The notes below the pieces were generated by a model that saw only the letters and a program-made list of their open reading frames with translations, was not told where the DNA came from and searched no databases. From positions 1 through 28,193 of the forward strand of contig JAHPZE010000042.1 of NCBI GenBank assembly GCA_019058365.1: a stretch of 28,193 nucleotides of DNA. The letters run 5' to 3'. Every line of letters begins with the position of its first letter. Position 1 is the first letter of the stretch. Below are positions 3,726 through 28,193 of this stretch, piece by piece. This stretch comes from Promethearchaeota archaeon. GTDB taxonomy: Archaea; Asgardarchaeota; Lokiarchaeia; Sigyniarchaeales; SOKP01. Position numbers and translations under genes: made by a program.

Positions 3726-5066
3726 ATGTCAGCACCATTAGATGTATTATTAAGAGATGCACGAATAGATTTGATCTTATCAAGAATAGAAAAAGATCCA
3801 TCTGTAATTGATGATGTAATTAAATATATAGATAGCGAAATCCGATCTATTCGATTCAATTCAATACTCATATTAGGTGAGTTAGGACAAAAAGCATCTT
3901 CAGCTCTCTCCGTAATAACAGAATGTTTGGAAGATGAAGATTGGAGTATATGCCGTGAGGCTGTTCGGTCTTTGGGAAAAATGGGGAATTTAGCTGAGAA
4001 TGCTTCTTCCAAATTATCAAAGTTAATTGGAAATGAAGAAGATTCAATTCGAAGAGAAATAGCAATAACATTGGGAAAAATTGGTATTGCTAGTGATGAG
4101 ACACTTTCTGCCTTAAAAACTGCTTTAAAAGATAAGAATGAAGAGGTTCGAATAGAAGCAGCTAAAGCGCTTGGAAATATAGGTCCCAGTGCTCATACAA
4201 TTATTCATGATCTGATGCTTAGTCTTAAAGATAAAAGTTGGTCTGTCAGAACGGCGACGGCACAAGCTATTAGTAAGATCGGGGAGGGAACTATAAAAGC
4301 AATACCTACTTTAATAAACTCATTAGATGATAATGATTGGAGAGTAAGGTATAGAGTCGTGAATACATTAACTAAAATGGGAAAGGAAGCAGTTCCAAAT
4401 CTTTTGAAAGTTCTTAAACATAAGAATCCTATTGCTAGAAAGGAAGCAGTTGAAGCTTTGGGAGGAATGCAACTTAATGATCCAACTATAATTGACAGTT
4501 TATCAGAAATGTTAAGTGATAATGTTGAATATGTACGTGGAAAAGCAGCTGATGCCCTCCGAAGTATTGGTAAGGATGCAATTCCAGCATTAATCAAAGC
4601 ATATGAGAATGTTAAAACTGAAATGAAAATTGTAATAATTTCTACTATTGGTGGGATTGGAATTGAAGCTGAAGAAGCAATTCCGTTTATAATTGAGGTT
4701 CAAAATCATAAAAATAAATTAATTCGCATAGAAGCTTCAAGAACTTTGGGTAATATTGGGAGAACTTCAGAGGAAGCGGTTAATGCGCTTATACAAGCGT
4801 TAAATGACCCAAAACACATCGTTCGGAGAGTGACTGCCATTGCTTTAGGGAAAATTGGACCTATTGCGAATAAAGCAGTTCCTGCATTAATCAATGTATT
4901 AAATGATAAGAATCCGGATGTTAGATGGAGAGCATCTGAGTCACTTGGAATTATTGGTGTAAATACCGAAGAGGTTATTTCAAGTTTGAACGAGTTGATC
5001 CATGATGAATGTGATTATGTATGCGAATCTGCTATTAATGCTCTTGATAATTTAACGGAAGAATAA
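3726..5066 (+). CDS. PBS-lyase-type HEAT-repeat protein
   Basis: About a dozen repeats of the pattern L.D....VR..AA.ALG.IG (e.g. LKDKNEEVRIEAAKALGNIG, LNDKNPDVRWRASESLGIIG). AGGTGA RBS overlaps the livF stop. Confidence 0.9.
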   Translation: MSAPLDVLLRDARIDLILSRIEKDPSVIDDVIKYIDSEIRSIRFNSILILGELGQKASSALSVITECLEDEDWSICREAVRSLGKMGNLAENASSKLSKLIGNEEDSIRREIAITLGKIGIASDETLSALKTALKDKNEEVRIEAAKALGNIGPSAHTIIHDLMLSLKDKSWSVRTATAQAISKIGEGTIKAIPTLINSLDDNDWRVRYRVVNTLTKMGKEAVPNLLKVLKHKNPIARKEAVEALGGMQLNDPTIIDSLSEMLSDNVEYVRGKAADALRSIGKDAIPALIKAYENVKTEMKIVIISTIGGIGIEAEEAIPFIIEVQNHKNKLIRIEASRTLGNIGRTSEEAVNALIQALNDPKHIVRRVTAIALGKIGPIANKAVPALINVLNDKNPDVRWRASESLGIIGVNTEEVISSLNELIHDECDYVCESAINALDNLTEE

Positions 5067-9888: not shown

Positions 9889-12297
9889 TCAAATAAAGCA
9901 CGATATATCTTTTTGAAGAGATTTCTTATTATAATCTAATGTCAGCAATTCCTCAAGCTCAGGGAATTTAAAAGGAAAAATATTTTCAAACGCTCTTTTT
10001 AGTAGGTCAACATATTTTTTTCTGTCGTATTCATGCTTTTTCTCATCGTATAAATCTGAAAGTATAACTTTTTTTTCAGGGAAATTCGGATCTGCTTCAG
10101 AATTAAGGATAATATATCTCACGTTCTTCCCTGCAGACGCTATTACACCAGATCGTTCTAATTGCCTAGCAGCAACCGCTTGAAAGCTGTTAACTTTATA
10201 TTGATTTGGTCTACGAGATATTCTTTGGCGAATCGTAAGTTCTTCTCTCGTTGTTTTTCCGGAATAAACTCTTTCTGCATATTCATAGAGTTTTTTCTTT
10301 GCTTTTGGAATTCTTTCAATAAACTCATTAACGGTCATTGCTCCTTGAAAAATATCAATGAATGCATATTGAGCATCTTTTACTATTTTTGGCATATCTC
10401 TCCGTCTCACTTCAATACCTCTCACTTTCACTTCACCATTGCTTTTGATACCCCAATAATGGCTAAGTGCAGGAACATCTGGTTCTGCTCGAGAAGGCAA
10501 AAAAACGATACTATTGAACCTACCATCCCAACTCATAGGAATACCAGTACTTTCGGAGATTTCCTCGGCAATTTTCTTTGTTAACTCTTCAAACTCTTTT
10601 GATGTTCTTCCTTTCGTGTCTTGGAGCCACATTGAATCGACAATTCCGTGAATAACTTTACAATCATAATTTTTGGCAATCTCAGCGGATCTCAATAGAA
10701 ATTCACGAGCAAAAGCACAAACTGTTTGATGAGCCTCAATTTTGCCAAAACGAGCATTTTTGAATCCTAAATATCCAAAACTTACAACAAGTACCCATTT
10801 TAATGCAATATCAGTGAATTTGTACCGAAGATCATTATGGGTTTTATTGTATTCTTTATACTTAAGACGCTTTCTTAGTGGCAGGCTAATTGATTTTGAT
10901 ATGATTCCTTCTCTTTTTGTACATATATGGAAATTTGTGCCAGGCACTTTGATTCCTGTTCCATCATCCTTACAACAATTACAATTAATCGTTTCCGATG
11001 AAATATTGAAGTTGGCCATTAGAGAGGGGTACATGCTTGAAAAGTCTAATTCTACAACTTGATCGAAGATTCCAATTAAGGGTTCGAATATATGTCCTCC
11101 TCGATCATTTATGATTAAATTCATACCGCTTCGAAAATCTTCTGGGCTCTTCTTGAAAGGTGGGATAAGATGATCTAGTTTATATGCATTATAATATTGA
11201 ATAGATTGAAGAGCACCTCCTATTGTTACTCTACATAATCTTTGCATCGGTACCCGAGAGATTCTCGCGACTTCAATAACACCAGGTATATTTCCCTCAC
11301 TAAAGTGCAAACTCCCGTAAGTAGTCGTGTCTAAATGAAAACGTCCCGTAAAGTAAACTTGTGTTTTGGAACGTCGCATTATAATCCCATAAGACATATA
11401 ATGATCTGAGTTTCCTGAAAGATTAAAGATGCAATTTCTAAGTGGCGTTCTAGTGCGAGAAAAATATAGATCATTGGATACTCGATTCACTGATGCTCGA
11501 GCAGCTAAGTAAGGAAATACAAATTCATCTCCACCTTGAGTTAATATAATGTCAGGATCCAATTGTTCAATCACCTTACTAATTGTTTTGATAGTTTCAG
11601 CTTCATCAGCTTTATCGATCAGAATCTTTCTTTTTCTTTGTCCATCTGCCCTCGGAATGTTGGCTTTCTCATCTTTTTCAACAATACTAATTTCAGCATA
11701 TAGCAGAGGATCATTGTAATATGATCTCATCCCACGCTGCTGTATTTTAATGTCCAACCATACAGCTTTTAGAGGAGGAAGATCATAAAATAATTCTTCG
11801 TTGTCATCCTTTATTTCTAATGATATTAAACGCATCAAGTGTCCGTTAGCTTTTTTCTTCTTTTCAAGTTTGATCTTAAAACCACATAAAGACATTGGAA
11901 ACAAGTCATTTTCATAAAAATACATCTGAGAGATTGGAAGATCGGTGTTATACAAAGTAAAAAGACCAATTTCATCAATTTCTTTAATTGTCTTCTTAAA
12001 AACTAAAGGTTTTACTACAGAAACTCCAAATATTTTTGCTTTTTCATGGTCCTCTAACTTCACATATTTTTCACAGATTCTTACACTTTTTATATTATGA
12101 TGGGATTTGAGAATCTGTTTTAATCTCTTGAAATCTTTACCAACATGTCGTTTTGGCACAGCAAAAAATTCGGGGTGGAAATCATGGAAAATTTTTACAA
12201 CCTTTTGCTCTTTTACTGTTTTCACCCAAAGAATTACTCCATTCCTATAAGTAGAAACATCTAAAAGCCAGCCGTCAAATTGATCTCGAAAATCCAC
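9889..12297 (-). CDS. polB2: Family B DNA polymerase, PolB2 (Dpo2) group
   Basis: Motif A ELDFSSMYPS, motif B KWVLVVSFGYLG, motif C HGIVDS in place of YGDTDS, KVRGIEVRRRD. No recognisable exonuclease DxE motif. Cys insert NCNCC...HIC and C-terminal PIP-like QKDISCFI. GTG start. Confidence 0.92.
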   Translation of the reverse strand: MDFRDQFDGWLLDVSTYRNGVILWVKTVKEQKVVKIFHDFHPEFFAVPKRHVGKDFKRLKQILKSHHNIKSVRICEKYVKLEDHEKAKIFGVSVVKPLVFKKTIKEIDEIGLFTLYNTDLPISQMYFYENDLFPMSLCGFKIKLEKKKKANGHLMRLISLEIKDDNEELFYDLPPLKAVWLDIKIQQRGMRSYYNDPLLYAEISIVEKDEKANIPRADGQRKRKILIDKADEAETIKTISKVIEQLDPDIILTQGGDEFVFPYLAARASVNRVSNDLYFSRTRTPLRNCIFNLSGNSDHYMSYGIIMRRSKTQVYFTGRFHLDTTTYGSLHFSEGNIPGVIEVARISRVPMQRLCRVTIGGALQSIQYYNAYKLDHLIPPFKKSPEDFRSGMNLIINDRGGHIFEPLIGIFDQVVELDFSSMYPSLMANFNISSETINCNCCKDDGTGIKVPGTNFHICTKREGIISKSISLPLRKRLKYKEYNKTHNDLRYKFTDIALKWVLVVSFGYLGFKNARFGKIEAHQTVCAFAREFLLRSAEIAKNYDCKVIHGIVDSMWLQDTKGRTSKEFEELTKKIAEEISESTGIPMSWDGRFNSIVFLPSRAEPDVPALSHYWGIKSNGEVKVRGIEVRRRDMPKIVKDAQYAFIDIFQGAMTVNEFIERIPKAKKKLYEYAERVYSGKTTREELTIRQRISRRPNQYKVNSFQAVAARQLERSGVIASAGKNVRYIILNSEADPNFPEKKVILSDLYDEKKHEYDRKKYVDLLKRAFENIFPFKFPELEELLTLDYNKKSLQKDISCFI

Positions 12298-12300
12298 GCT

Positions 12301-12573
12301 CTAACCTTTCCCTTTTATCATTTCTTCTAATTTTTTTACCTTCTCTTCTAACGCTTCGATTTTTTTTTCTTGTTCAACTGCAAAGGAGATGAATAATACT
12401 TCTGATAGCATTGGACGAGCACTCATGCTACCAGCATCTGCGTGTATTCGAGCAAAATTCATCAATTTATCAAATATCTTCTGTTCTTCAGGACGCAATG
12501 CCCTTTTGAAGTCCTTCCAGCTTTCGATTTCATGCTCCAATGCAGGTCTAAAAGAAGGTACAGTTCTACCCAT
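12301..12573 (-). CDS. Small alpha-helical PolB2-associated protein (arCOG07300-like)
   Basis: MGRTVPSFR.ALE.EI..W..F.RALR.EE..IFD.LM..AR.HA pattern with a C-terminal coiled coil. Ends 3 nt before the polB2 start. Confidence 0.85.
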   Translation of the reverse strand: MGRTVPSFRPALEHEIESWKDFKRALRPEEQKIFDKLMNFARIHADAGSMSARPMLSEVLFISFAVEQEKKIEALEEKVKKLEEMIKGKG

Positions 12574-15131: not shown

Positions 15132-15932
15132 CTAAAACCAGTAATCTATCGTCGCATTCTTTAAAGGAACTTTTTTCTTAGGTGTACGGGTTTTCCACTT
15201 TCGCAACCTATTTTCAGGTAAGTAAGGGTGTTGTACTAAAACATATTCATCAAATCTTTCATCGTCATTTATCATCACTAATACATTTCCAAAATGAGAA
15301 AGAATTTTTCCACCTTTCGGTCTGAAAAGAGAATGTTCGTGTAAAGATGTTGTAATAATAATGAGAGGTCTTGTTTTACAGAGTATTTGTTTGATTCCAT
15401 CTATTGTTCTTAGTAGATCTTCGAAAGTCTGCTTTTCATAGCCCTCAAACATTGTTGTAATCCCTGAGATTAATACAACTTTCACATCTTCAAGCATGCA
15501 AAGCCTGTTCTCCAAAATTTCAACCATTTGATCCCAAGTAAACGCTCGTGAAATAAGAATGTTTTCTAATACTTTCCGAGGAGATAAATTCTGTGAAACC
15601 GCAAACTTGCTTACATTATAGGGGTTAAACCGATTGTTTCCATCGATGAAGGCAACCCTAATACTTTCTCCAAATCCTCCATTATTAAAAGCTTTTTGGG
15701 CAATAACCGCTGTTGTTAGCAAAATATTGGTTGTTAACTTCTTATCTCCATAGAGTAAATACACTAAATCTCTGTGAAATCCTCCAGAAAGCAACTTGTC
15801 TAACGTGTGATCCCCACTTGAAATGAATGGTAAGTGATTGTTTCTTTTAAACACCTTAAATCCATCATCATAAGAGCGTAACGATTCTTCGAACGTCATT
15901 ATATGGAGTAAGGATTCTTCAAAATAAAACAA
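15132..15932 (-). CDS. RadA/Rad51-like protein with a degenerate Walker A (inactivated, PolB2-associated type)
   Basis: ISSGDHTLDKLLSGGF, then LLYGDKKLTTN where the P-loop should be (no GKT), then AFIDGNNRFNP and LENILISRAFT. C-terminal NATIDYWF. Start is TTG 15932 or ATG 15899. Confidence 0.85.
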   Translation of the reverse strand: MFYFEESLLHIMTFEESLRSYDDGFKVFKRNNHLPFISSGDHTLDKLLSGGFHRDLVYLLYGDKKLTTNILLTTAVIAQKAFNNGGFGESIRVAFIDGNNRFNPYNVSKFAVSQNLSPRKVLENILISRAFTWDQMVEILENRLCMLEDVKVVLISGITTMFEGYEKQTFEDLLRTIDGIKQILCKTRPLIIITTSLHEHSLFRPKGGKILSHFGNVLVMINDDERFDEYVLVQHPYLPENRLRKWKTRTPKKKVPLKNATIDYWF

Positions 15933-16241: not shown

Positions 16242-17957
16242 ATGTCAAAAATTTATAAAGATAGGTTTTGGATGGCAAACTGGGATTCGCATATTAAAGA
16301 TCTGAATCCCCAAGAGTTTGAAACTTCATTTACTGAAACGATAAGAAGAACTTTTAAAGAACTCCCTGATAAGTTAGCTTTTGCTTTTTATGGGACAGAA
16401 ATTACATATGGAGAATTGGATAAATTATCTAATGAATTTGCTCATATGCTTATTGAAAATGGAATGAAAAAAGGAGACGTTCTGGGAATAAATGTTGCTA
16501 ATATTCCTGAATATATAATTGGTATTTTGGGAGCAATGAAGGTGGGAGTTATTGTTTCTGGTGTTTCACCACTCCTCTCAGCTGTTCAAATACAATATCA
16601 ATTAAATGATTTGGGATCTAGTGGAAAGCAGGTTGCACTTCTCACTTTAGATGCAATTTTTGAGGGCCATATTACAAAAATTTATACAAAGCTTCCTTCG
16701 GTAAAATTAATAATTACTACAAGTGTGGGTGGCTTTATGCCAAAAATGTTAGCTAAGTTGGGAAGACTGGCAGGAAAAATCCCAAAAGGAAAAGTAACTC
16801 CGTTAGAAGGAAAAATAGTTCTTGAATATCATAAAAGCATTAAAGGAAAGTATTCTGATGAACTTCCCAAAGTTAAAATAACTCCAGATGATGTTATATT
16901 TATTCAATATACAGGAGGAACAACCGGTCCTCCAAAAGGGGCAATGTTGAGCCATAGAAATTTCGTTGCTGATATAAAAATATTCCAGCACTGGCTTAGT
17001 TGGGAATTTGGAGCGGGCTTTGCATTATCAGGATTTCCATTCTTCCATATAGCAGGATTATTTACTTGCTCGAATGTAATAATGTTAGGTTGGAGTCAGA
17101 TTTTAATACCAAATCCAAGAGATACTACCCATATGATAAAAGAAATGTTAAAATATAGACCCACAGTCTTGGCAAACGTACCTACATTGTATCAACTGAT
17201 AATAAAGGACCCTAAATTCAAAAAAATTGATAAAGATATGATTAACTATGCAATTTCGGCTGCAGCTCCATTTCCAAAAGAATCACAGGAGATATTTGAA
17301 GAAGTTATTGGCAAGGGAAAGATAATAGAGTTATATGGAATGACTGAAACTTCACCATTAACAGTGGGTAATCCTTCAAGGGGAAAGAAGAAATTGGGAC
17401 ATATTGGTTTACCCTTCCCTAATGTGGATTTCAAATTAGTGGACCCAGAGACAGAAAAAGTAGTACCTATAGGTGAAGCAGGAGAAATCTGTGTAAAAGG
17501 CCCAATGGTTATGGAAGGTTATCACAATAAACCAGAAGAAACGAAAAAAGCTATTGATTCTGATGGGTTCATGCATACTGGAGATGTTGGAATAATGGAT
17601 GAAGAAGGTTATGTAAGAATCGCCGATCGAACCAAAGATATGATTATTGTAGGAGGATTTAAGGTTTTTTCTGCAAAATTAGAAGATACTTTAACTAAAC
17701 ACCCTGCTATTGAGATGGTAGCTACTATTGGTGTGCCAAACCCAGATAGACCCGGTTCTGAACTTGTGAAAGCCATTATACAAATAGCACCTGATTATAA
17801 ATATGATGGAGATGAGGAAGCATTAAGGGAAAAAATAACTGCATTTGCAAAAGAAAATTGCTCTCCATATGAAGTCCCAAAAATCATTGAATTTACTGAT
17901 GAGCTTCCACTAACCGTTGTAGGAAAAGTTGATAAGAAATTATTGAGAAAAAATTAG
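16242..17957 (+). CDS. fadD: Long-chain acyl-CoA synthetase, copy 2
   Basis: QYTGGTTGPPKG, ELYGMTETSP, MHTGD, DRTKDMI, LPLTVVGK. Confidence 0.92.
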   Translation: MSKIYKDRFWMANWDSHIKDLNPQEFETSFTETIRRTFKELPDKLAFAFYGTEITYGELDKLSNEFAHMLIENGMKKGDVLGINVANIPEYIIGILGAMKVGVIVSGVSPLLSAVQIQYQLNDLGSSGKQVALLTLDAIFEGHITKIYTKLPSVKLIITTSVGGFMPKMLAKLGRLAGKIPKGKVTPLEGKIVLEYHKSIKGKYSDELPKVKITPDDVIFIQYTGGTTGPPKGAMLSHRNFVADIKIFQHWLSWEFGAGFALSGFPFFHIAGLFTCSNVIMLGWSQILIPNPRDTTHMIKEMLKYRPTVLANVPTLYQLIIKDPKFKKIDKDMINYAISAAAPFPKESQEIFEEVIGKGKIIELYGMTETSPLTVGNPSRGKKKLGHIGLPFPNVDFKLVDPETEKVVPIGEAGEICVKGPMVMEGYHNKPEETKKAIDSDGFMHTGDVGIMDEEGYVRIADRTKDMIIVGGFKVFSAKLEDTLTKHPAIEMVATIGVPNPDRPGSELVKAIIQIAPDYKYDGDEEALREKITAFAKENCSPYEVPKIIEFTDELPLTVVGKVDKKLLRKN

Positions 17958-19336: not shown

Positions 19337-21052
19337 ATGTCAAATCCGTATAAAAGTAGATTTTGGCGGAAGAATTGGGATCCATATCTTTCTGATCTTG
19401 ACCCGAAAGAATTTGAAACTACTTATCCTGAAACTGTAAGAAGAGTATTTGAAAAATTTCCCAATAATATGGCACTTGCTTATCAGGGAATAGAAATCAG
19501 CTTTAGTAAATTGGATAGATATTCTAGTCAATTTGCTAACATGCTGATTGAAAATGGTTTTAATAAAGGAGATGTAGTGGGAATTAATTTAGCAAATATT
19601 CCAGAATATGTATATTCTGTTTTAGGTACACTTAAAGCGGGATGTATTGTTTCAGGTGTTAGTCCTCTATTATCTGATGTCCAAATGCATTATCAATTAG
19701 ATGATCTCGGAAAAGGAGGTAAAAATGTTGCTTTAGTCACTCTTGATGCGATTTTTGAACATAGACTAACAAAAATTGCTGATAAATTACCGCAACTTAA
19801 AGTCGTTGTAGCAACAAGTGTAATCGGTTCATTTTCTAAAGAGGATCAAGCAAAGATTAAAGCAGTTCAGGATATCCCCTCTGGGGAAGTCAGTTCTTTA
19901 GAAGGAAAGATTGTCTATAATTTCCAAGATGATGTTTTGAAGAATTTTTCTACTGAATTACCAAAAGTTGATATATCTCCCAATGATATCGGGTGGATTC
20001 AATATACTGGCGGTACTACAGGACCTCCTAAAGGTGCAATGTTGAGCCACAGAAATTGCGTTTCAAATATAAAAGGTATTATTAGTTGGCTTCAATGGGA
20101 AGAAGGAAAAGGAATACTATTATCTGGATTTCCTATATTTCATGTTGCCGGTTTAACTGTATGCGAAGGTGCTCTTTTCAATGGTATGAGTCAAATTTTA
20201 ATTGCTAATCCTCGTGACGCGTTACATATCTGTAATGAAATGAAAAAATATAAACCAACAATGTTAGTAAATGTGCCTTCACTATATCAAATTTTAATCA
20301 ATTTTCGTAAATTTAAAAGGTTAGACCACTCAAGTTTGAGAATGTGCATTTCTGCAGCAGCTCCATTTCCAAAGGAATCTCAGGAAGCTTTAGAAAACAT
20401 AGTAGGCAAAGGTAAATTATTAGAACTTTATGGGATGACAGAATTATCACCTGTTGCTACAATGAATCCCTCCTTAGGTAAGAAAAAATTGGGTACAGTA
20501 GGATTGCCATTTTTAAACGTTGATTTAAGGATCGTCGATCCTGAAACCAATGAGATAGTTCCATTAGGAGTACCTGGAGAAATTTGCGTAAATGGACCAT
20601 TAGTTATGCAAGGATATTATAATAAACCAGAAGAAACTGCTAAAGCTATAGATAAAGACGGATATATGCACACTGGCGATGTTGGCATAATGGATGAGGA
20701 TGGCTATATTCGTATTGTTGATCGCACAAAAGATATGATTATTGTTGGAGGTTATAAAGTTTTTTCAGCGAAAGTTGAAGATACGCTAGTAAACCATCCT
20801 GCAATTGGAATGGTTGCATTAATCGGGCTCCCTAACCCTGATAGACCCGGATCTGAAATCGTTAAAGCTTTCGTCCAAATCAACCCAGATTTTGAATTTG
20901 ATGGAAATAAGGAAGCATTAAAGGAAGATATAATAAAATTTTCTAAAGACAATTTAGCACCATATGAAGTTCCAAAGTTAGTAGAATTTTCAGAAGAATT
21001 ACCATTAACGGTAGTAGGAAAAATAGACAAGAAAATTCTGAGATCTGGTTGA
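19337..21052 (+). CDS. fadD: Long-chain acyl-CoA synthetase, copy 3 (close paralog of copy 2)
   Basis: Same motifs and same length (571 aa) as 16242-17957, with shared blocks IVSGVSPLLS.VQ..YQL.DLG and ISAAAPFPKESQE. Confidence 0.92.
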   Translation: MSNPYKSRFWRKNWDPYLSDLDPKEFETTYPETVRRVFEKFPNNMALAYQGIEISFSKLDRYSSQFANMLIENGFNKGDVVGINLANIPEYVYSVLGTLKAGCIVSGVSPLLSDVQMHYQLDDLGKGGKNVALVTLDAIFEHRLTKIADKLPQLKVVVATSVIGSFSKEDQAKIKAVQDIPSGEVSSLEGKIVYNFQDDVLKNFSTELPKVDISPNDIGWIQYTGGTTGPPKGAMLSHRNCVSNIKGIISWLQWEEGKGILLSGFPIFHVAGLTVCEGALFNGMSQILIANPRDALHICNEMKKYKPTMLVNVPSLYQILINFRKFKRLDHSSLRMCISAAAPFPKESQEALENIVGKGKLLELYGMTELSPVATMNPSLGKKKLGTVGLPFLNVDLRIVDPETNEIVPLGVPGEICVNGPLVMQGYYNKPEETAKAIDKDGYMHTGDVGIMDEDGYIRIVDRTKDMIIVGGYKVFSAKVEDTLVNHPAIGMVALIGLPNPDRPGSEIVKAFVQINPDFEFDGNKEALKEDIIKFSKDNLAPYEVPKLVEFSEELPLTVVGKIDKKILRSG

Positions 21053-21955: not shown

Positions 21956-22777
21956 ATGCTTGCAGAAGAATTTAAACAGATTAAATATAATAAAGAAGAA
22001 AATGGAATTCTAACTGTTACCCTAAACTGGCCCGAAAAAAAAAATGCTCTTTCACCATTAGGGCTTTTAGAACTCTGGTATGCTGTGGATCATGCTGAAA
22101 AGGATAAACAAGTTAAAGTTATGATATTAACAGGGTGTGAGGAAGCAGGCGCTTTTTCTTCGGGGGGTTATTTTTCAAATGAAATGTTGAAAGATATACC
22201 GGAAAAGTATAGAACAGAAATCAATTTAAGAGATATGGCATCAAAAAAGTTATGTCTTAAGTTTTGGGATTTTCCAAAACCAGTGATATCAGTGATTAAT
22301 GGTTTTGCTGTGGGTGGGGGATTTACACTTCCAGTAATTTGTTCAGATTTAGTCTATATGGCTGAAGATGCATGGTGGGCATTATATTTTATAAAAAGAG
22401 CGGTTATCCCTGATTTTGCCACTACTATTCTTTTACCTTTCATAATAGGGATGAATAAAGCTAAAGAATTGTTTTATTTTGGCGATCGAATGACTGCACA
22501 CGACGCAGAAAGATTAGGGCTTATTAATAAAGCATTACCTAAAGAGAAATTAGTGTTGTATGCAAAAGATCAAGCTTTAAGGCTTATTCCCCCTAAAGGG
22601 CCATCTCTTTCAATTAAGTTAATGAAGAAAACCATACATACCTATTTTAGGGATATTTTAGAATCACAATTAGATTTAGAAAATAAAATGTGGACCAAGG
22701 CAATCCAAAGTAAAGATTTTGGAGAGTCTTTAAATGCTTTAAAGGAAAAAAGGGATCCAACTTTTATTGGAAAATAA
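21956..22777 (+). CDS. Crotonase (enoyl-CoA hydratase/isomerase) superfamily protein
   Basis: LNWPEKKNAL, AFSSGG, PKPVISVINGFAVGGG, AHDAERLGLIN, EKRDPTFIGK. Confidence 0.9.
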   Translation: MLAEEFKQIKYNKEENGILTVTLNWPEKKNALSPLGLLELWYAVDHAEKDKQVKVMILTGCEEAGAFSSGGYFSNEMLKDIPEKYRTEINLRDMASKKLCLKFWDFPKPVISVINGFAVGGGFTLPVICSDLVYMAEDAWWALYFIKRAVIPDFATTILLPFIIGMNKAKELFYFGDRMTAHDAERLGLINKALPKEKLVLYAKDQALRLIPPKGPSLSIKLMKKTIHTYFRDILESQLDLENKMWTKAIQSKDFGESLNALKEKRDPTFIGK

Positions 22778-23070
22778 GTTTATATATCTTTAATAAATCA
22801 TAGGAATACTCAACAATGATTTTTAATATGGGATTTCTGTCACATAAAATTTTTTTTTTAGTCTAAATCATTCAATTCTATATTATCCCTAAAAAGTGAA
22901 TCTAAAAAAAAAGATTAATAACGATTATTTTTATTTATTCAATATAATATAATAATATAAAAAAAATATAAGAAATTAAGAAAGATCAATATTTCACTTA
23001 ATATCTTAAGTTATTAGCTAACTATAATTTAGTTTTATAATTCATTTTACACAATTTGGTGCAAGAACAA

Positions 23071-23619
23071 ATGGCTGCTGCAAAAAGCTTCATTTACAAG
23101 ATATGTGTTGTAGGAGATGGCGGCGTAGGTAAAACATCTATGGTCCTACGCTACTGTGAAAACACGTTCAAAGAAAATTATATTATGACGATTGGATCCA
23201 ACTTTTCAACAAAACAAATAAAGTTAGATGAATATCCGAACTATCTAATTCGACTCCAATTATGGGATCTCGCAGGACAGAAGCATTTTAGTTTTGTAAG
23301 GCCTCCTTTTTATAGAGGGAGTAGTGCTACGGTATATACATTCGACCTTACACGAAGAAGTTCATTTCAGAATATCTTAAATTGGAAAGCAGAAGTGGAA
23401 AAAGTAATCGGGGATGGCAAACCAAGTATTTTAGTAGGAAATAAAACTGATTTGGCAGAACAATGGGGCAGAGAAGTCGGAGAAGGGGAAGGTGAAGCAT
23501 TAAAGGAAGAGCTTAACGCAATAGCATATTATGAAACAAGTGCCAAGAATGATCTTAGAGTTTCTCCTGTGTTCAAAGATATAACACTTGCTATTTTAGA
23601 GAAGACTCAAAAGATCTAA
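23071..23619 (+). CDS. Rab-like small GTPase (Ras superfamily)
   Basis: G1 GDGGVGKTS, G2 YIMTIG, G3 WDLAGQ, FYRG, G4 GNKTD, G5 ETSAK. No C-terminal Cys motif. ATG 23071 preferred over TTG 23056. Confidence 0.93.
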   Translation: MAAAKSFIYKICVVGDGGVGKTSMVLRYCENTFKENYIMTIGSNFSTKQIKLDEYPNYLIRLQLWDLAGQKHFSFVRPPFYRGSSATVYTFDLTRRSSFQNILNWKAEVEKVIGDGKPSILVGNKTDLAEQWGREVGEGEGEALKEELNAIAYYETSAKNDLRVSPVFKDITLAILEKTQKI

Positions 23620-23700
23620 CTTTTTATTAGTTATAAACCATAAATTAAAATTTAGTTGTAAATTTAAAAACATAAAATAAAATAATAATAGGTAAATTAC

Positions 23701-24417
23701 ATGTTTGGAGCAGCCCCAAAATATGACCGTGCCCTTACTGTCTTTTCCCCAGAAGGGCGTCTTTTTCAGGTAGAATATGCTTTAGAGGCAGTGAGGCGAG
23801 GAACTCTCGCGGTCGCCATAAAATCTAAAGAAGATGTGTGTCTAGCAGCTCAAATAAAAATACCATCAATATTAATGGATGCTGATTCAATTGATAAACT
23901 TTTCCAAATAGATGAACATATTGGAGTAGCAATTTCTGGTCTTCATGCTGATTCCCGTGCTCTTATAAATTATGCAAGAGTCCAAGCACAATCGTTTAGA
24001 TTAACATATGATGAGCCTGTTCGCTTGAATATGCTAGCAAAGTCAATTGCGGATATGAAACAAATGTATACGCAGTATGGAGGTATAAGGCCATTTGGTT
24101 GCGCTCTTTTTTTCATCGGAATAGATGCTGGAGGGACGCAAATTTTCACAACATCACCAAGCGGAATTTACCGTTCATTCAAAGCATATGCTATTGGGAC
24201 TGGGGAGGCATCCGCTCGAGAATATTTAATTGAAAATTATAAAGAAGAAATGCCATTTGAAAAAATCATTAATTTAGCGTTAAATGCTCTAAAAGACTCG
24301 ATAGATGAAGAAGCAACAAAAGAGAATATCCGAATGGCTTATATTAAAGGTGAAACAAAACAGTTTCATATGTGTAATAAACAAGAAGTAGAAGAATTTT
24401 TGACGAAATTAACATAA
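23701..24417 (+). CDS. psmA: 20S proteasome alpha subunit
   Basis: YDRALTVFSPEGRLFQVEYA, IDEHIGVAISGLHAD, YTQYGGIRPFG, AYAIG. Confidence 0.96.
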   Translation: MFGAAPKYDRALTVFSPEGRLFQVEYALEAVRRGTLAVAIKSKEDVCLAAQIKIPSILMDADSIDKLFQIDEHIGVAISGLHADSRALINYARVQAQSFRLTYDEPVRLNMLAKSIADMKQMYTQYGGIRPFGCALFFIGIDAGGTQIFTTSPSGIYRSFKAYAIGTGEASAREYLIENYKEEMPFEKIINLALNALKDSIDEEATKENIRMAYIKGETKQFHMCNKQEVEEFLTKLT

Positions 24418-24525
24418 TTCTTATTTTAAAATCATCATAAAAGATTTTATTTTCTCAATCTATATTATAGATATTAATATAATATCTAGAATTTTTCTTA
24501 TATAACGAAAAAATAAGCGAGTTTT

Positions 24526-24918
24526 ATGGCTAAGAAGAAGATTAGAGAAGAGTTTGATAAACTTTTTAAGAATGGTGATGAAAAAGCAATAAAAAAGATG
24601 TTAGATAAGAATCCTTGGCTTCTTGATGAAGTCTCAAATACTATGGATGCAGGTATGGTAGAGCAAAATCAAATTATTGCTGCATTAGGTGTAATGGAAG
24701 ATGAACTTGGAGGTCCTGTGCCGATTGATGAAATTATATTTAGTTTAAGAGTTGATTTTAATATACGTAAAAGTGAGGATGAAGTACATACAATTTTAGC
24801 TAGCACAGAAAATCTAAATCTTGTAAAAAGAGACACTAATGGGTGGAGTTTAACTATTGAAGGAGGGAAAATCTGCGATGATTATCTTAATAAGAATCTA
24901 GGAAAAATTGAATTGTGA
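24526..24918 (+). CDS. Hypothetical protein with a probable C-terminal winged-helix domain
   Basis: Helix-helix-helix then LVKR..NGWSLT.EG wing-like pattern. Acidic overall. Confidence 0.7.
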   Translation: MAKKKIREEFDKLFKNGDEKAIKKMLDKNPWLLDEVSNTMDAGMVEQNQIIAALGVMEDELGGPVPIDEIIFSLRVDFNIRKSEDEVHTILASTENLNLVKRDTNGWSLTIEGGKICDDYLNKNLGKIEL

Positions 24919-25042
24919 TCGATTAAATATTTATTTTCGTTTAATAATTTTTAAATTAAGACTAATTTATTATAGAAATATTGTAGAGAGATTTTTGTTT
25001 AATATTTTCATTCATAATTCTCCTAAAAAATAGTTGAGATAT

Positions 25043-28000
25043 ATGGCAGAGAAAAAAGAGGAAGATTTCGACCAGGAATTCGATAAGAACGGGTTTGATC
25101 CCACAAAAGAAGCATTTTTTTCTGATATGATGAATGCGGAGGAAGAAATCGCTTCTGAGGCTTATGAATTAGTTGAACATGCTATTAATCTAATAGGGGG
25201 TCATTATTATGATGATGGTATTGAAATCTTACGTCAAGCAATCGGATTATATACACAGATTAATAGAGAAGAAGAAATAAAAGCTATTAATGATAAAATT
25301 TCAGAAGTTTATGTACTTAAAGAAAAATCATTCCGAGAAATCGAAGCTGAACCAGAAAAAGAAGTGGAAGTTTTTAAGGAAGCTGAAGTGATTGAGGAAC
25401 CTGAAGCTATCGAGGAAATTGAAGAGGTAGAAGTGAGCAAAGGAGCTGAATTAATCGAAGAGACTAGGAATGAGGCTGATTTGATCAGTAGAGCAGATGA
25501 ATTAATTGTGGAAGCCCACCAATTAACTAATTCCGGTGAATTTGAGGAAGCTCTCAATAAATATGATGCAGCTGAAAATATCCTTGAAGATCTTAATAAA
25601 ACTGAGGAGATAGAAAGATTATTTTTATTGATTGAAGAATGCTATACTAAAAAAGCGGAATATTTACGTAATGTTAAAAAAGAAGAACTATTTGTTGGTA
25701 TGGAAACAGAAGTACAATTAAGTGAAGAGCAGATAAAAGAACAAAAATTAGAACAATTTCGTGAAACTAAAAAGAGAGAGGAGGAGATTTCAACTCGAGC
25801 ATATGAAATATTGGATCAAGCAGTAGAAAGGGCAAAATTACAAGAATACGATCACGCGATAAAATTATATGAGGAAGGTATAAGTTTATTTGAAGAATTA
25901 AATTGGACATATGAAGCTAAACGAATTCGAGATACTATAGAGCAGTTAGAAAAAGAAAAGCTTGAACATCTTAGAGAACTTGAGAAAGAAAGAGTAGAGA
26001 TGGAACAAAAAATTGAAACCGAGTTAGAAAAAGAAAAATTGATTGATCACTACGCAAAAGAGGTAATTGAACAAGAAAAACTTGCACAACTAGAAAGATT
26101 AAAAGGACTCGAATTTCAAAAAATGGAGCAAGAGTTCTTTAAAGCACAAATTGACAATATGGTGTCAAATGCAGCTAGAATGGCACATGAGTATGAAATA
26201 GAAATGCAGAGAGCTATCAAAGATGGAAAAATAGTGGAGGAATGTATTTATCCTAAAGTTATTGAAATTTATAAAAGCATAAAGGATTTACTCATTGATA
26301 AGGGTTGGAATAAGGAAGCAGCAATATATGATGATACAATAGACGTCTATATTCAAAAATTTGAAAAGGATAAAAAAATAAGACAAATCGAAGCCGACAA
26401 GGTAAGCAAACAGAAAGAAACCGAAGAACTACTAAAAGTTCAGGAACAAGGTATAGAAGTTCATATTAGCGAAGAACAACAACATGCTATAAAAGAGCAA
26501 AGTCAAAGAGCAATAGAAATTCAGAATATACGAAATCAAATTGAGGAGATGACTAAAAGAGCAGAGCGTTTAGCTAGAGAGTATGAAGTAGCGTTAAGAA
26601 AAGGTAAATTCGAATTAAAATGTCCTTATTCTGATATTATCAATATTTTTGAAAAAGCTCGACAAATGGCATTAGAAAGAGGTTGGGATACAGATGTGAC
26701 AATCTTTTCAAGTCAGATATATTCTTATAAACAAAAGCTGGAAAAAGATAATCGATTAAGACAAATTGAAGTTGATAAAGTTAGAAAACAAGAAGAGATT
26801 GAAGAAACGTTTAAAGTTAAAAAAGAGGAGCCTTCTGTTGGATTAGATGTTGAAAAATTAAAATTACTTGAAAAGCAAAAAAAAGCAGAAGAAGAAAAAG
26901 AAGATTTTGATTCTACTATCGATATAATGGTAAATCGAGCGGAAAAAATGGCTCGAGAATATAATTCTGAAATGAAAAAAGCCATAAAAAAGGGTAAATT
27001 AGCAGAAAATCCTCCATTTTTGAAGATTATTGGTATATATGAAAAAGTTAAGCGAATGTTGCTTGAGAATGGACGTGAAGAAGAAGCGGCAGCATATGGT
27101 ACCCAAATAAATTTTTACTCAGAAAAATTAGAGCATGATAACAAATTAAGAGAAGTAGAGGCTGAAAAAGCCTATAGAGAAAAAGCACTTGAAGAAATGC
27201 ATAAAATGGGTAAGCACATTGGAGTAGAGGAGGAAAGATTAAAAACTATAGAAAGGAAAAAAGAAGAGGAAGATTTTGAAAAATTCATATCTGATAATGT
27301 CAATAATGCCGAAAAAATGGTGCGTGATTATGAAATGAATATGAGAAAGGCTTATAGAAAAGGAGAAATAATAAAGAATACACCATATTCAGACGTTATT
27401 GAAATATATAAAGAAATACGAGAAAAAGTCTATGCGAGGGGATGGAAGGACCAAGCAGAAGTATATGCTAATCAGATTAAAATTTATCAAGAAAAGTTAG
27501 AGAAACATCAAAAACTATTCGAAGTTGAGGCTCAGAAAGCCCATAGAGAAAAAGAATTAGAAGAGATGCATAAAGTAGAAAAGGAAGTTGAAGTTGACCA
27601 TAAAAAACTAGAAGTTATTGATAGAAAAAAAGAAGAAAAAGAATTTCAAAAATATATTACGGAAGAGGTTAACAAAGCAGGGAAACTTGAAAGAGAATTT
27701 GATACAGTTATGAAAAAAGCTATTAAAAAAGGGGAAATAATAGAACAAACCCCCTATCTAAAGATAATAGAAATATATAAAGAAATACGAGAAAAAATCT
27801 ATGCGAGGGGATGGAAAGACCAGGCAGAAGTATATGCCAATCAGATTAAAATTTATCAAGAGAAATTAGAGAAGCATCAAAATCTACTTGAAGTTGAGGC
27901 TCAGAAAGTCCAAAGGGAAAAAGATATCGAAGAGATGCATAAACTAGAAAAGAAAGTTGAAGTTGACCATAAAAAACTAGAAGTTATTGAGGACCAAAAG

Positions 28001-28193
28001 GAAGAAGAAGCTTTTGAAGAATATATTAATGATAGGATAAATAAAGCTGAAAAAGTAGTACGTGACTATGAAATGGATATGAAAAAAGCTATTAAAAAAG
28101 GGGAAATAATAGAACAAACCCCCTATTTAGATATAATAGAAATATATAAAGAAATACGAGAAAAAGTCTATGCGAGGGGATGGAAAGACCAGG
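25043..28193 (+). CDS. Giant (>1050 aa, truncated by the window edge) E/K-rich alpha-helical repeat protein with MIT-like units (not in ORF track)
   Basis: Begins at ATG 25043 (MAEKKEEDFDQEF...) and I saw no in-frame stop before the window end (...VYARGWKDQ). Three N-terminal MIT-like units, then at least six 123-130-aa repeats. Confidence 0.9.
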   Translation, partial: MAEKKEEDFDQEFDKNGFDPTKEAFFSDMMNAEEEIASEAYELVEHAINLIGGHYYDDGIEILRQAIGLYTQINREEEIKAINDKISEVYVLKEKSFREIEAEPEKEVEVFKEAEVIEEPEAIEEIEEVEVSKGAELIEETRNEADLISRADELIVEAHQLTNSGEFEEALNKYDAAENILEDLNKTEEIERLFLLIEECYTKKAEYLRNVKKEELFVGMETEVQLSEEQIKEQKLEQFRETKKREEEISTRAYEILDQAVERAKLQEYDHAIKLYEEGISLFEELNWTYEAKRIRDTIEQLEKEKLEHLRELEKERVEMEQKIETELEKEKLIDHYAKEVIEQEKLAQLERLKGLEFQKMEQEFFKAQIDNMVSNAARMAHEYEIEMQRAIKDGKIVEECIYPKVIEIYKSIKDLLIDKGWNKEAAIYDDTIDVYIQKFEKDKKIRQIEADKVSKQKETEELLKVQEQGIEVHISEEQQHAIKEQSQRAIEIQNIRNQIEEMTKRAERLAREYEVALRKGKFELKCPYSDIINIFEKARQMALERGWDTDVTIFSSQIYSYKQKLEKDNRLRQIEVDKVRKQEEIEETFKVKKEEPSVGLDVEKLKLLEKQKKAEEEKEDFDSTIDIMVNRAEKMAREYNSEMKKAIKKGKLAENPPFLKIIGIYEKVKRMLLENGREEEAAAYGTQINFYSEKLEHDNKLREVEAEKAYREKALEEMHKMGKHIGVEEERLKTIERKKEEEDFEKFISDNVNNAEKMVRDYEMNMRKAYRKGEIIKNTPYSDVIEIYKEIREKVYARGWKDQAEVYANQIKIYQEKLEKHQKLFEVEAQKAHREKELEEMHKVEKEVEVDHKKLEVIDRKKEEKEFQKYITEEVNKAGKLEREFDTVMKKAIKKGEIIEQTPYLKIIEIYKEIREKIYARGWKDQAEVYANQIKIYQEKLEKHQNLLEVEAQKVQREKDIEEMHKLEKKVEVDHKKLEVIEDQKEEEAFEEYINDRINKAEKVVRDYEMDMKKAIKKGEIIEQTPYLDIIEIYKEIREKVYARGWKDQ
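26130..28193 (+). repeat. Intragenic tandem repeats with an exact 369-bp period in the distal copies
   Basis: GAAATATATAAAGAAATACGAGAAAAA recurs at 27401, 27770 and 28139. The conserved Gly codon of each unit is at 26303, 26681, 27071, 27440, 27809 and 28178. The left boundary is approximate. Confidence 0.92.

Follow-up and report, generated by a model that had tools for sequence, protein, structure and literature searches.

A run of Rab-like GTPase, proteasome alpha2, winged-helix and giant MIT-like repeat genes in a Lokiarchaeia genome is probably a lineage-specific juxtaposition of two transcription units

Haloferax volcanii carries an alpha1/alpha2 pair of proteasome subunits, and spectrin-like rods, golgins and EEA1 are long helical rods or tethers. 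Lokiarchaeal Rab-like proteins have been described that lack a C-terminal cysteine, and Lokiarchaeum has 37 Rab-like proteins among its 133 small GTPases (Surkont and Pereira-Leal 2016, PMC4915359). Asgard subunits of ESCRT-II are defined by tandem winged helices (PMC9192718), and ESCRT-III tails are ligands of MIT domains (PMC7240154), which is the source of an analogy drawn below. Here we describe a 28,193-nucleotide stretch of DNA from Promethearchaeota archaeon (contig JAHPZE010000042.1; hereafter the window), in which four successive genes encode a Rab-like GTPase (rab), a proteasome alpha subunit (psmA2), a 130-aa winged-helix protein (wH) and a giant protein of MIT-like repeats. A preliminary description of this DNA suggested that the four genes could form an undescribed module linking a small GTPase switch and a long helical tether to proteolysis or membrane remodelling, with the caveat that neighbours with their own promoters may have come together by chance. 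The run is, we conclude, probably a lineage-specific meeting of two units, rab-psmA2 and wH-giant, each transcribed separately and with genes that work independently.

The window is the entire contig C18, part of a 4.74-Mb assembly to whose contigs the C-numbers in this text refer. The listing of open reading frames (ORFs) in the window places all four genes on the + strand, and the coordinates bear out the earlier statement that their gaps are about 80-125 bp, the actual distances being 81 bp, 108 bp and 115-124 bp. The enoyl-CoA hydratase gene at 21956-22777 is a fifth co-oriented gene, upstream of the run. The features of the run are as follows.

23056..23619, + strand: Rab-like small GTPase of the Asgard type, 187 aa (TTG start at 23056) or 182 aa (ATG start at 23071); Pfam Ras, E 1.7e-45
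23620..23700, + strand: rab-psmA2 gap of 81 bp, with a T-tract and a TATAAAC block; 21 same-genus gaps aligned
23701..24417, + strand: proteasome alpha2 (psmA2), 238 aa; Pfam Proteasome and Proteasome_A_N
24418..24525, no strand assigned: psmA2-wH gap of 108 bp, with a T-tract and a TATA-like palindrome at 24458-24472; sister genera hold a UPF0182-like gene here
24526..24918, + strand: wH, acidic protein with a single winged helix, 130 aa; AlphaFold fold, residues 41-130
25034/25043..28193, + strand: 5' half of the giant repeat protein gene, with three short and six long MIT-like units; runs off the contig end
27401..28193, + strand: recent tandem expansion in the giant gene, 369-bp period with 87% matches

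Comparison of gene order among relatives carries our conclusion. The order across the family is rab, psmA2, a UPF0182-like gene on the opposite strand and then wH, giant, an RHH gene (opposite strand), the gene for a 107-aa protein, and Zn-ribbon, GNAT and RFC genes. Within the genus of the window genome, psmA2 is directly followed by wH in 24 of 26 genomes. In the sister genera g12, g13, g14 and g15, an opposite-strand UPF0182-like gene encoding ~1,000 aa lies directly upstream of wH at 21 of 22 loci, the remaining locus being at a contig edge, and all 15 sister-genus loci that hold both psmA2 and wH have them 3.2-5.0 kb apart with the UPF0182-like gene between; wH must therefore have its own promoter in these genera. 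The same divergent UPF0182-like gene also flanks wH at 9/9 assembled loci of the outgroup family f2; in a psmA2 tree with alpha1 as root, the genus that branches first in the family (support 96/95) is one with the split state; and in one same-genus genome psmA2 still converges on the UPF0182-like gene. Contiguity is therefore most simply regarded as derived. In the window genome the UPF0182-like gene is on C16, and its removal from the locus would have left psmA2 108 bp from wH. A separate observation concerns one same-genus genome (G012), in which a 296-aa opposite-strand ORF, possibly derived from a mobile element, lies between psmA2 and wH (L070:4512-5402(-)).

Further out, the two halves of the run part company. 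Neither wH nor giant was found near psmA2 at 13 alpha2 loci outside the family, some of them on short contigs, and in two single-contig outgroup genomes psmA2 lies ~0.7-0.9 Mb from wH, with the best Rab match 10 kb away from wH on the opposite strand in one and 114 kb away in the other. The rab gene adjoins psmA2 family-wide, and no such adjacency is seen in other families. The wH and giant genes are adjacent at 51/51 family loci, at 8 of 10 loci in f2 and at none of four in family f4, the genomes of which hold related giants elsewhere; the pair is usually followed by the 107-aa gene. Synteny across Asgard genomes, which had been put forward as a check on the module, thus splits the run one taxonomic level up and retains only the wH-giant half across families, and the four-gene module is not supported: its gene order is lost beyond close relatives, the UPF0182-like gene breaking the run in four sister genera and psmA2 lying apart from the other genes in other families.

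The gaps tell a similar story. The first two open with a conserved T-tract, and all three contain conserved AT-rich blocks. In the rab-psmA2 gap the T-tract comes right after the rab stop codon and is followed by the conserved TATAAAC block; from their sequences, the latter appears promoter-like and the former terminator-like. The TATA-like palindrome of the next gap is genus-specific and is present in 21/24 same-genus gaps, at 63-71 nt before the wH ATG. Collectively, these motifs are suggestive of separate promoters and terminators. A scan of the locus for sigma-70 promoters and terminators gave hits at chance level with a model unsuited to archaea. The earlier caveat, that neighbours with their own promoters may have come together by chance, accounts for the run better than the module does.

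The conserved and undescribed part of the locus is the wH-giant pair, which is probably a multivalent scaffold. The giant gene is cut at the end of C18 inside the 369-bp tandem repeat, which probably made the assembly break there, and resumes on C44 (C44:77711-74379(-)) with a further 1,110 codons; near-identical copies of the repeat are found at the start of C44. Over the possible C18-C44 joins, the full protein comes to ~1,900-2,150 aa, the contig ends overlapping only via these near-identical repeats; intact orthologues have 932-2,547 aa and 7-17 units. The units recur every ~123 aa and are linked by E/K-rich helices, in most of them an insert separates helix 1 from helix 2, and the C terminus is a conserved basic helix. 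An AlphaFold model of two units (66 sequences; predicted local distance difference test (pLDDT) 96; predicted template modelling score 0.63) consists of three-helix bundles, and a single helix of 105 residues spans helix 3 of the first and helix 1 of the second. A rigid giant modelled in this way would measure ~13 nm for each unit and ~200 nm in total, a length to be taken as an upper bound because other linkers contain Pro or Gly.

AlphaFold and superposition show that the MIT-domain three-helix bundle of ~70 residues occurs in the giant: a unit superposes on 2w2u (VIA Z 9.9, root-mean-square deviation 1.5 over 63 residues) and on 4a5x too. The top Foldseek matches are mostly MIT domains, with SNAP/TPR folds close behind, and the part of the giant within the window scores 24.7 bits against Pfam MIT (PF04212), below the cut-off of 30. 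The units therefore weakly but consistently resemble MIT domains (MITD1, VPS4A/B and archaeal Vps4), and the earlier view of the giant as an MIT-like repeat protein is supported by structure prediction, fold search and profile matches, though sub-threshold in Pfam. Members of the giant family were found in 70 of 73 other genomes when the two best-sampled families were searched and in 0/7 genomes from other orders of the class, and a literature search of incomplete coverage found no paper on the locus or the giant family. We envisage the giant as a catalytically empty multivalent scaffold that would display ~15-17 MIT-like bundles on charged helical linkers and bind short helical or extended peptide tails in the manner of MIT domains, with ESCRT-III tails, by analogy, as the leading candidate ligand. 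An ESCRT-III and Vps4-like locus lies on C46, apart from the window, and there is therefore no genomic link between the giant and ESCRT; the ESCRT-III proteins of this genome number two, encoded on C46 and C2. The giant is near-universal in this order and, as a rule, paired with wH; it is a candidate structural element that lends itself to study in cultured Lokiarchaeia.

Several relatives and neighbours of the giant gene were seen elsewhere in the assembly. A 2,127-aa paralogue of 16 units (C45:7995-14378(-); L074), whose summed Pfam MIT score of 74.4 bits passes the cut-off, is encoded directly upstream of a ThiF/E1-like gene, beyond which, at ~3 kb, there is a UBC/E2-like ORF. The adjacency of a paralogous giant to an E1-like gene is patchy (11/20 loci in the family and 0/10 outside it) and so lends no support to a ubiquitin role. 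A free-standing 220-aa protein encoded at C24:97909-98571(+) consists of two long-type giant units and has ~225-aa counterparts in several relatives. The 107-aa gene (C44:73509-73832(-); L071) is conserved 3' of giant across families and has relatives in other archaea; it has no Pfam match and gave weak leads only, to DUF3276/PHA01746.

The wH protein has no match in Pfam. Its AlphaFold model (29 sequences, pLDDT 82) shows N-terminal helices followed by a winged helix at residues 41-130, and together with the fold search it bears out the initial assignment of the 130-aa ORF. The best fold match is 1stz (VIA Z 12.3, root-mean-square deviation 1.7 over 81 residues), and the matches are generic and of transcription-factor type (HxlR, MntR/DtxR and MarR). 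The winged-helix domain is acidic, with 17 D/E versus 8 K/R and an isoelectric point of 4.3, and the N-terminal helical extension of ~40 aa is missing in several genera. Across the family wH proteins are 93-141 aa long with one winged helix each, and wH is nearly universal in the order, as a single copy in 37/41 genomes; a search of other Asgard families outside the order gave one marginal match only. A profile search of 1.8 billion representatives returned 29 relatives, nearly all short, and the named homologues mostly carry Promethearchaeota or Lokiarchaeia labels. We suggest that the acidic wH, rather than being a proteasome-lid (PCI) or ESCRT-II subunit, more likely binds the giant as a protein partner or regulates it. 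A complex prediction of wH with two parts of the giant, its N-terminal unit and its C-terminal 200 aa, scored 0.00 and is evidence neither way.

The lid and ESCRT-II assignments just mentioned fit wH less well. The single winged helix of wH differs from the tandem arrangement of ESCRT-II, and the ESCRT-III/Vps4-like locus lies elsewhere; as a PCI protein, wH would be without a helical-repeat domain, having at most the ~40-aa N-terminal extension. The top 50 fold matches listed for wH contain neither ESCRT-II nor PCI chains, which does not rule them out. A longer or fused form of wH was represented by one 260-aa protein on a 941-bp contig, which is probably chimeric and weak evidence. Further, a wH gene truncated at its 5' end is overlapped at L053:10001-10700(-) (G033) by a Snf7/ESCRT-III ORF (Pfam E 2.7e-11), but we did not accept this link because it comes from a single error-prone, 63% complete genome and was not seen in the other three f4 genomes.

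The first gene of the run encodes an unexceptional GTPase. Its start is probably TTG 23056 and not ATG 23071, since the orthologues have 186-187 aa. The G1-G5 motifs are complete (GDGGVGKTS, YIMTIG, WDLAGQ, NKTD and ETSAK), and the stretches IGSNF, RLQLW, HFSFVR, FYRGS and YTFDLT are near, though not identical, to RabF1-F5 in a by-eye reading against the consensus. The short C terminus, LEKTQKI, has neither a prenylation cysteine nor a hypervariable tail and, with the Pfam Ras match, agrees with the preliminary identification of an unprenylated Rab-like GTPase. The genome has 66 Rab-like loci, including the window copy, and a Rab-like neighbour is therefore a common occurrence; the window GTPase may simply be one of 66 cytosolic switches that functions on its own.

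The genome contains two proteasome alpha genes, the products of which are 44% identical. The canonical psmA (alpha1) is on C39, before SBDS, Rrp4 and more exosome-like genes, and the window copy is the second paralogue (alpha2), which explains its place outside that neighbourhood; it is thus a proteasome alpha gene as first described, whereas the SBDS/exosome setting noted as frequent for archaeal psmA belongs to alpha1. The alpha2 domains score above the Pfam cut-offs (PF10584, 54.3 bits; PF00227, 175.7 bits, Proteasome E 1e-51), the best PDB matches are archaeal alpha subunits (aligned to 6he5), and the alpha2 group is split from alpha1 in the tree with support of 100/100. The gate residues Y8, D9, P17 and Y26 and the activator-pocket residue K66 are invariant or nearly so across 16 alpha1 and alpha2 sequences, and alpha2 keeps the YDR gate motif. 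Alpha2 would be a core proteasome subunit that enters mixed or alternative alpha rings with alpha1. The alpha signature occurs twice in most Asgard families sampled and in one or three copies in a few. The diverged pair offers a ready model of how a homomeric alpha ring first began to turn heteromeric. We found no paper on paired Asgard proteasome alpha genes or on alpha2 in a literature search of incomplete coverage. In family f2 (L031, L033, L035, L037 and L047), psmA2 lies next to genes for a vWA (Ssl1/Rpn10-like)-RING protein and a SNAP/TPR protein; in the window genome these two genes stand together at C26:66612-70621, where psmA2 is not present. They are possibly a better lead to proteasome-linked factors.

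It seems to us most improbable that the four proteins constitute one module, in which a GTPase switch, a tether and an adaptor bring substrates or membranes to the alpha2 proteasome and selection for co-expression keeps the genes clustered. Such a module would accord with the shared strand, the gaps of 81-124 bp, the contiguity seen in 24/26 same-genus genomes and in g16, the location of all four genes within ~7 kb in most of the family, split loci included, and, in genus g2, a best Rab match 10 kb from wH, but in four sister genera the halves are parted by an opposite-strand gene, linkage of psmA2 is missing at 13/13 outgroup alpha2 loci examined (some on short contigs), and most Asgard families have two alpha genes whereas wH and giant were found in one order only. 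Further, the flanking Sir2, enoyl-CoA hydratase and RFC genes are syntenic to a similar degree, and local order therefore reflects descent. Very unlikely, in our judgement, is an arrangement of two real two-gene operons side by side, wH-giant and a rab-psmA2 operon tying a GTPase to the alpha2 proteasome in this family only. Although rab is directly 5' of psmA2 on the same strand at nearly all family loci with both, including those of the deepest genus, the pair is not found in other families, one genome shows psmA2 inverted, or broken, with respect to rab, a T-tract and TATA-like block separate the two genes, and it is nothing unusual, in a genome with 66 Rab-like genes, for one of them to be a neighbour by chance and then be fixed by descent. 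The juxtaposition of separately transcribed, independently working units that we favour has to contend with several points of its own. The calls of promoters and terminators amount to conserved motifs in AT-rich DNA; within the family the psmA2 tree lacks resolution and does not give the number of losses; rab and psmA2 are adjacent family-wide; and psmA2-wH contiguity is stable across the genus and recurs in g16, with the same order and wider gaps in g17 and g18, so that some read-through or secondary co-regulation is possible. As for the giant, its MIT profile matches are weak (E 0.006-0.03; MITD1 E 0.006, VPS4B E 0.02) and its Foldseek MIT matches have E values of 0.18 or worse.

The wH-giant pair itself can be read differently, namely with wH as a DNA-binding regulator of the giant gene, the locus (wH, RHH, the 107-aa PC4/PUR-like gene, Zn-ribbon and RFC, with SMC in one family) serving chromosome organisation and the giant acting as a nucleoid or segregation spacer and not as an ESCRT-type scaffold. 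We think this unlikely. The transcription-factor-type fold matches of wH point that way, as do the conserved palindrome 54-68 nt upstream of wH, the weak DUF3276/PHA01746 leads for the downstream 107-aa gene, the basic helix that terminates the giant and, in f4 genomes (L053, L061 and L062), an SMC gene with two small unannotated companions a few kb from wH; however, the strongly acidic winged helix (17 D/E vs 8 K/R) is atypical of DNA binding, fold matches do not establish function, and the palindrome is genus-specific. At the opposite end lies a far-reaching proposal, to which we give little credence: that wH-giant is a scaffold of one Lokiarchaeia order, a rod of up to ~200 nm bearing 10-17 MIT-like heads, its length set by repeat number, which gathers ESCRT-III filaments or proteolytic and ubiquitin machinery along the cell and is co-regulated in this family with a Rab-like GTPase and the alpha2 proteasome, as a prokaryotic analogue of a GTPase-controlled tether. 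If true, such a Rab-tether-proteasome module would bear on the origin of eukaryotic trafficking; its genomic support dissolves one taxonomic level up.

Elsewhere in the window, a family B DNA polymerase gene (9889-12573(-)) has an upstream 90-aa ORF and a nearby Rad51/RadA-like gene (15132-15932(-)), an arrangement that we take to resemble the archaeal PolB2 operon. A 446-aa HEAT-repeat protein is encoded at 3726-5066(+), immediately 3' of a branched-chain amino acid ABC transporter operon. Paralogous genes for 571-aa AMP-binding (acyl-CoA ligase-like) proteins, at 16242-17957 and 19337-21052(+), lie either side of a 4Fe-4S protein gene, and the pair adjoins Sir2 and enoyl-CoA hydratase genes.

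Set against described systems, the window GTPase shares with other Asgard Rab-like GTPases its G-boxes, apparently RabF-like motifs, short cysteine-free C terminus and membership of a much expanded family (PMC4915359); unremarkable in sequence, it is distinct only by its family-wide place before psmA2. The wH protein shares its fold with the winged helices of ESCRT-II Vps22/Vps25 and of PCI proteins (PMC9192718, PMC10936438), and its acidic surface suits protein binding, but it has one winged helix and no helical-repeat part, and its gene lies outside the ESCRT locus. Compared with MIT proteins (Vps4/CdvC, MITD1 and the tandem-MIT calpain-7; PF04212; 4a5x, 2w2u and 1yxr), the giant has the same three-helix bundle, with profile and fold matches, but carries ~15-17 sub-Pfam copies with helix 1-2 inserts on long charged helices, has no ATPase or other catalytic domain and is encoded outside the ESCRT locus. 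There is no evidence of sequence or fold homology between the giant and spectrin-like rods, golgins or EEA1, and neither a membrane anchor nor a conserved link to a particular GTPase was seen, yet it is likewise a long all-helical repeat rod with continuous modelled helices and, if extended, a length of similar order. Finally, the window alpha2 has the full Proteasome_A_N and core domains, the gate and the K66 pocket of archaeal 20S alpha subunits, including the alpha1/alpha2 pair of Haloferax volcanii, and differs from archaeal 20S psmA in being a second paralogue beyond the SBDS/exosome superoperon, two alphas being the rule in most Asgard families sampled.

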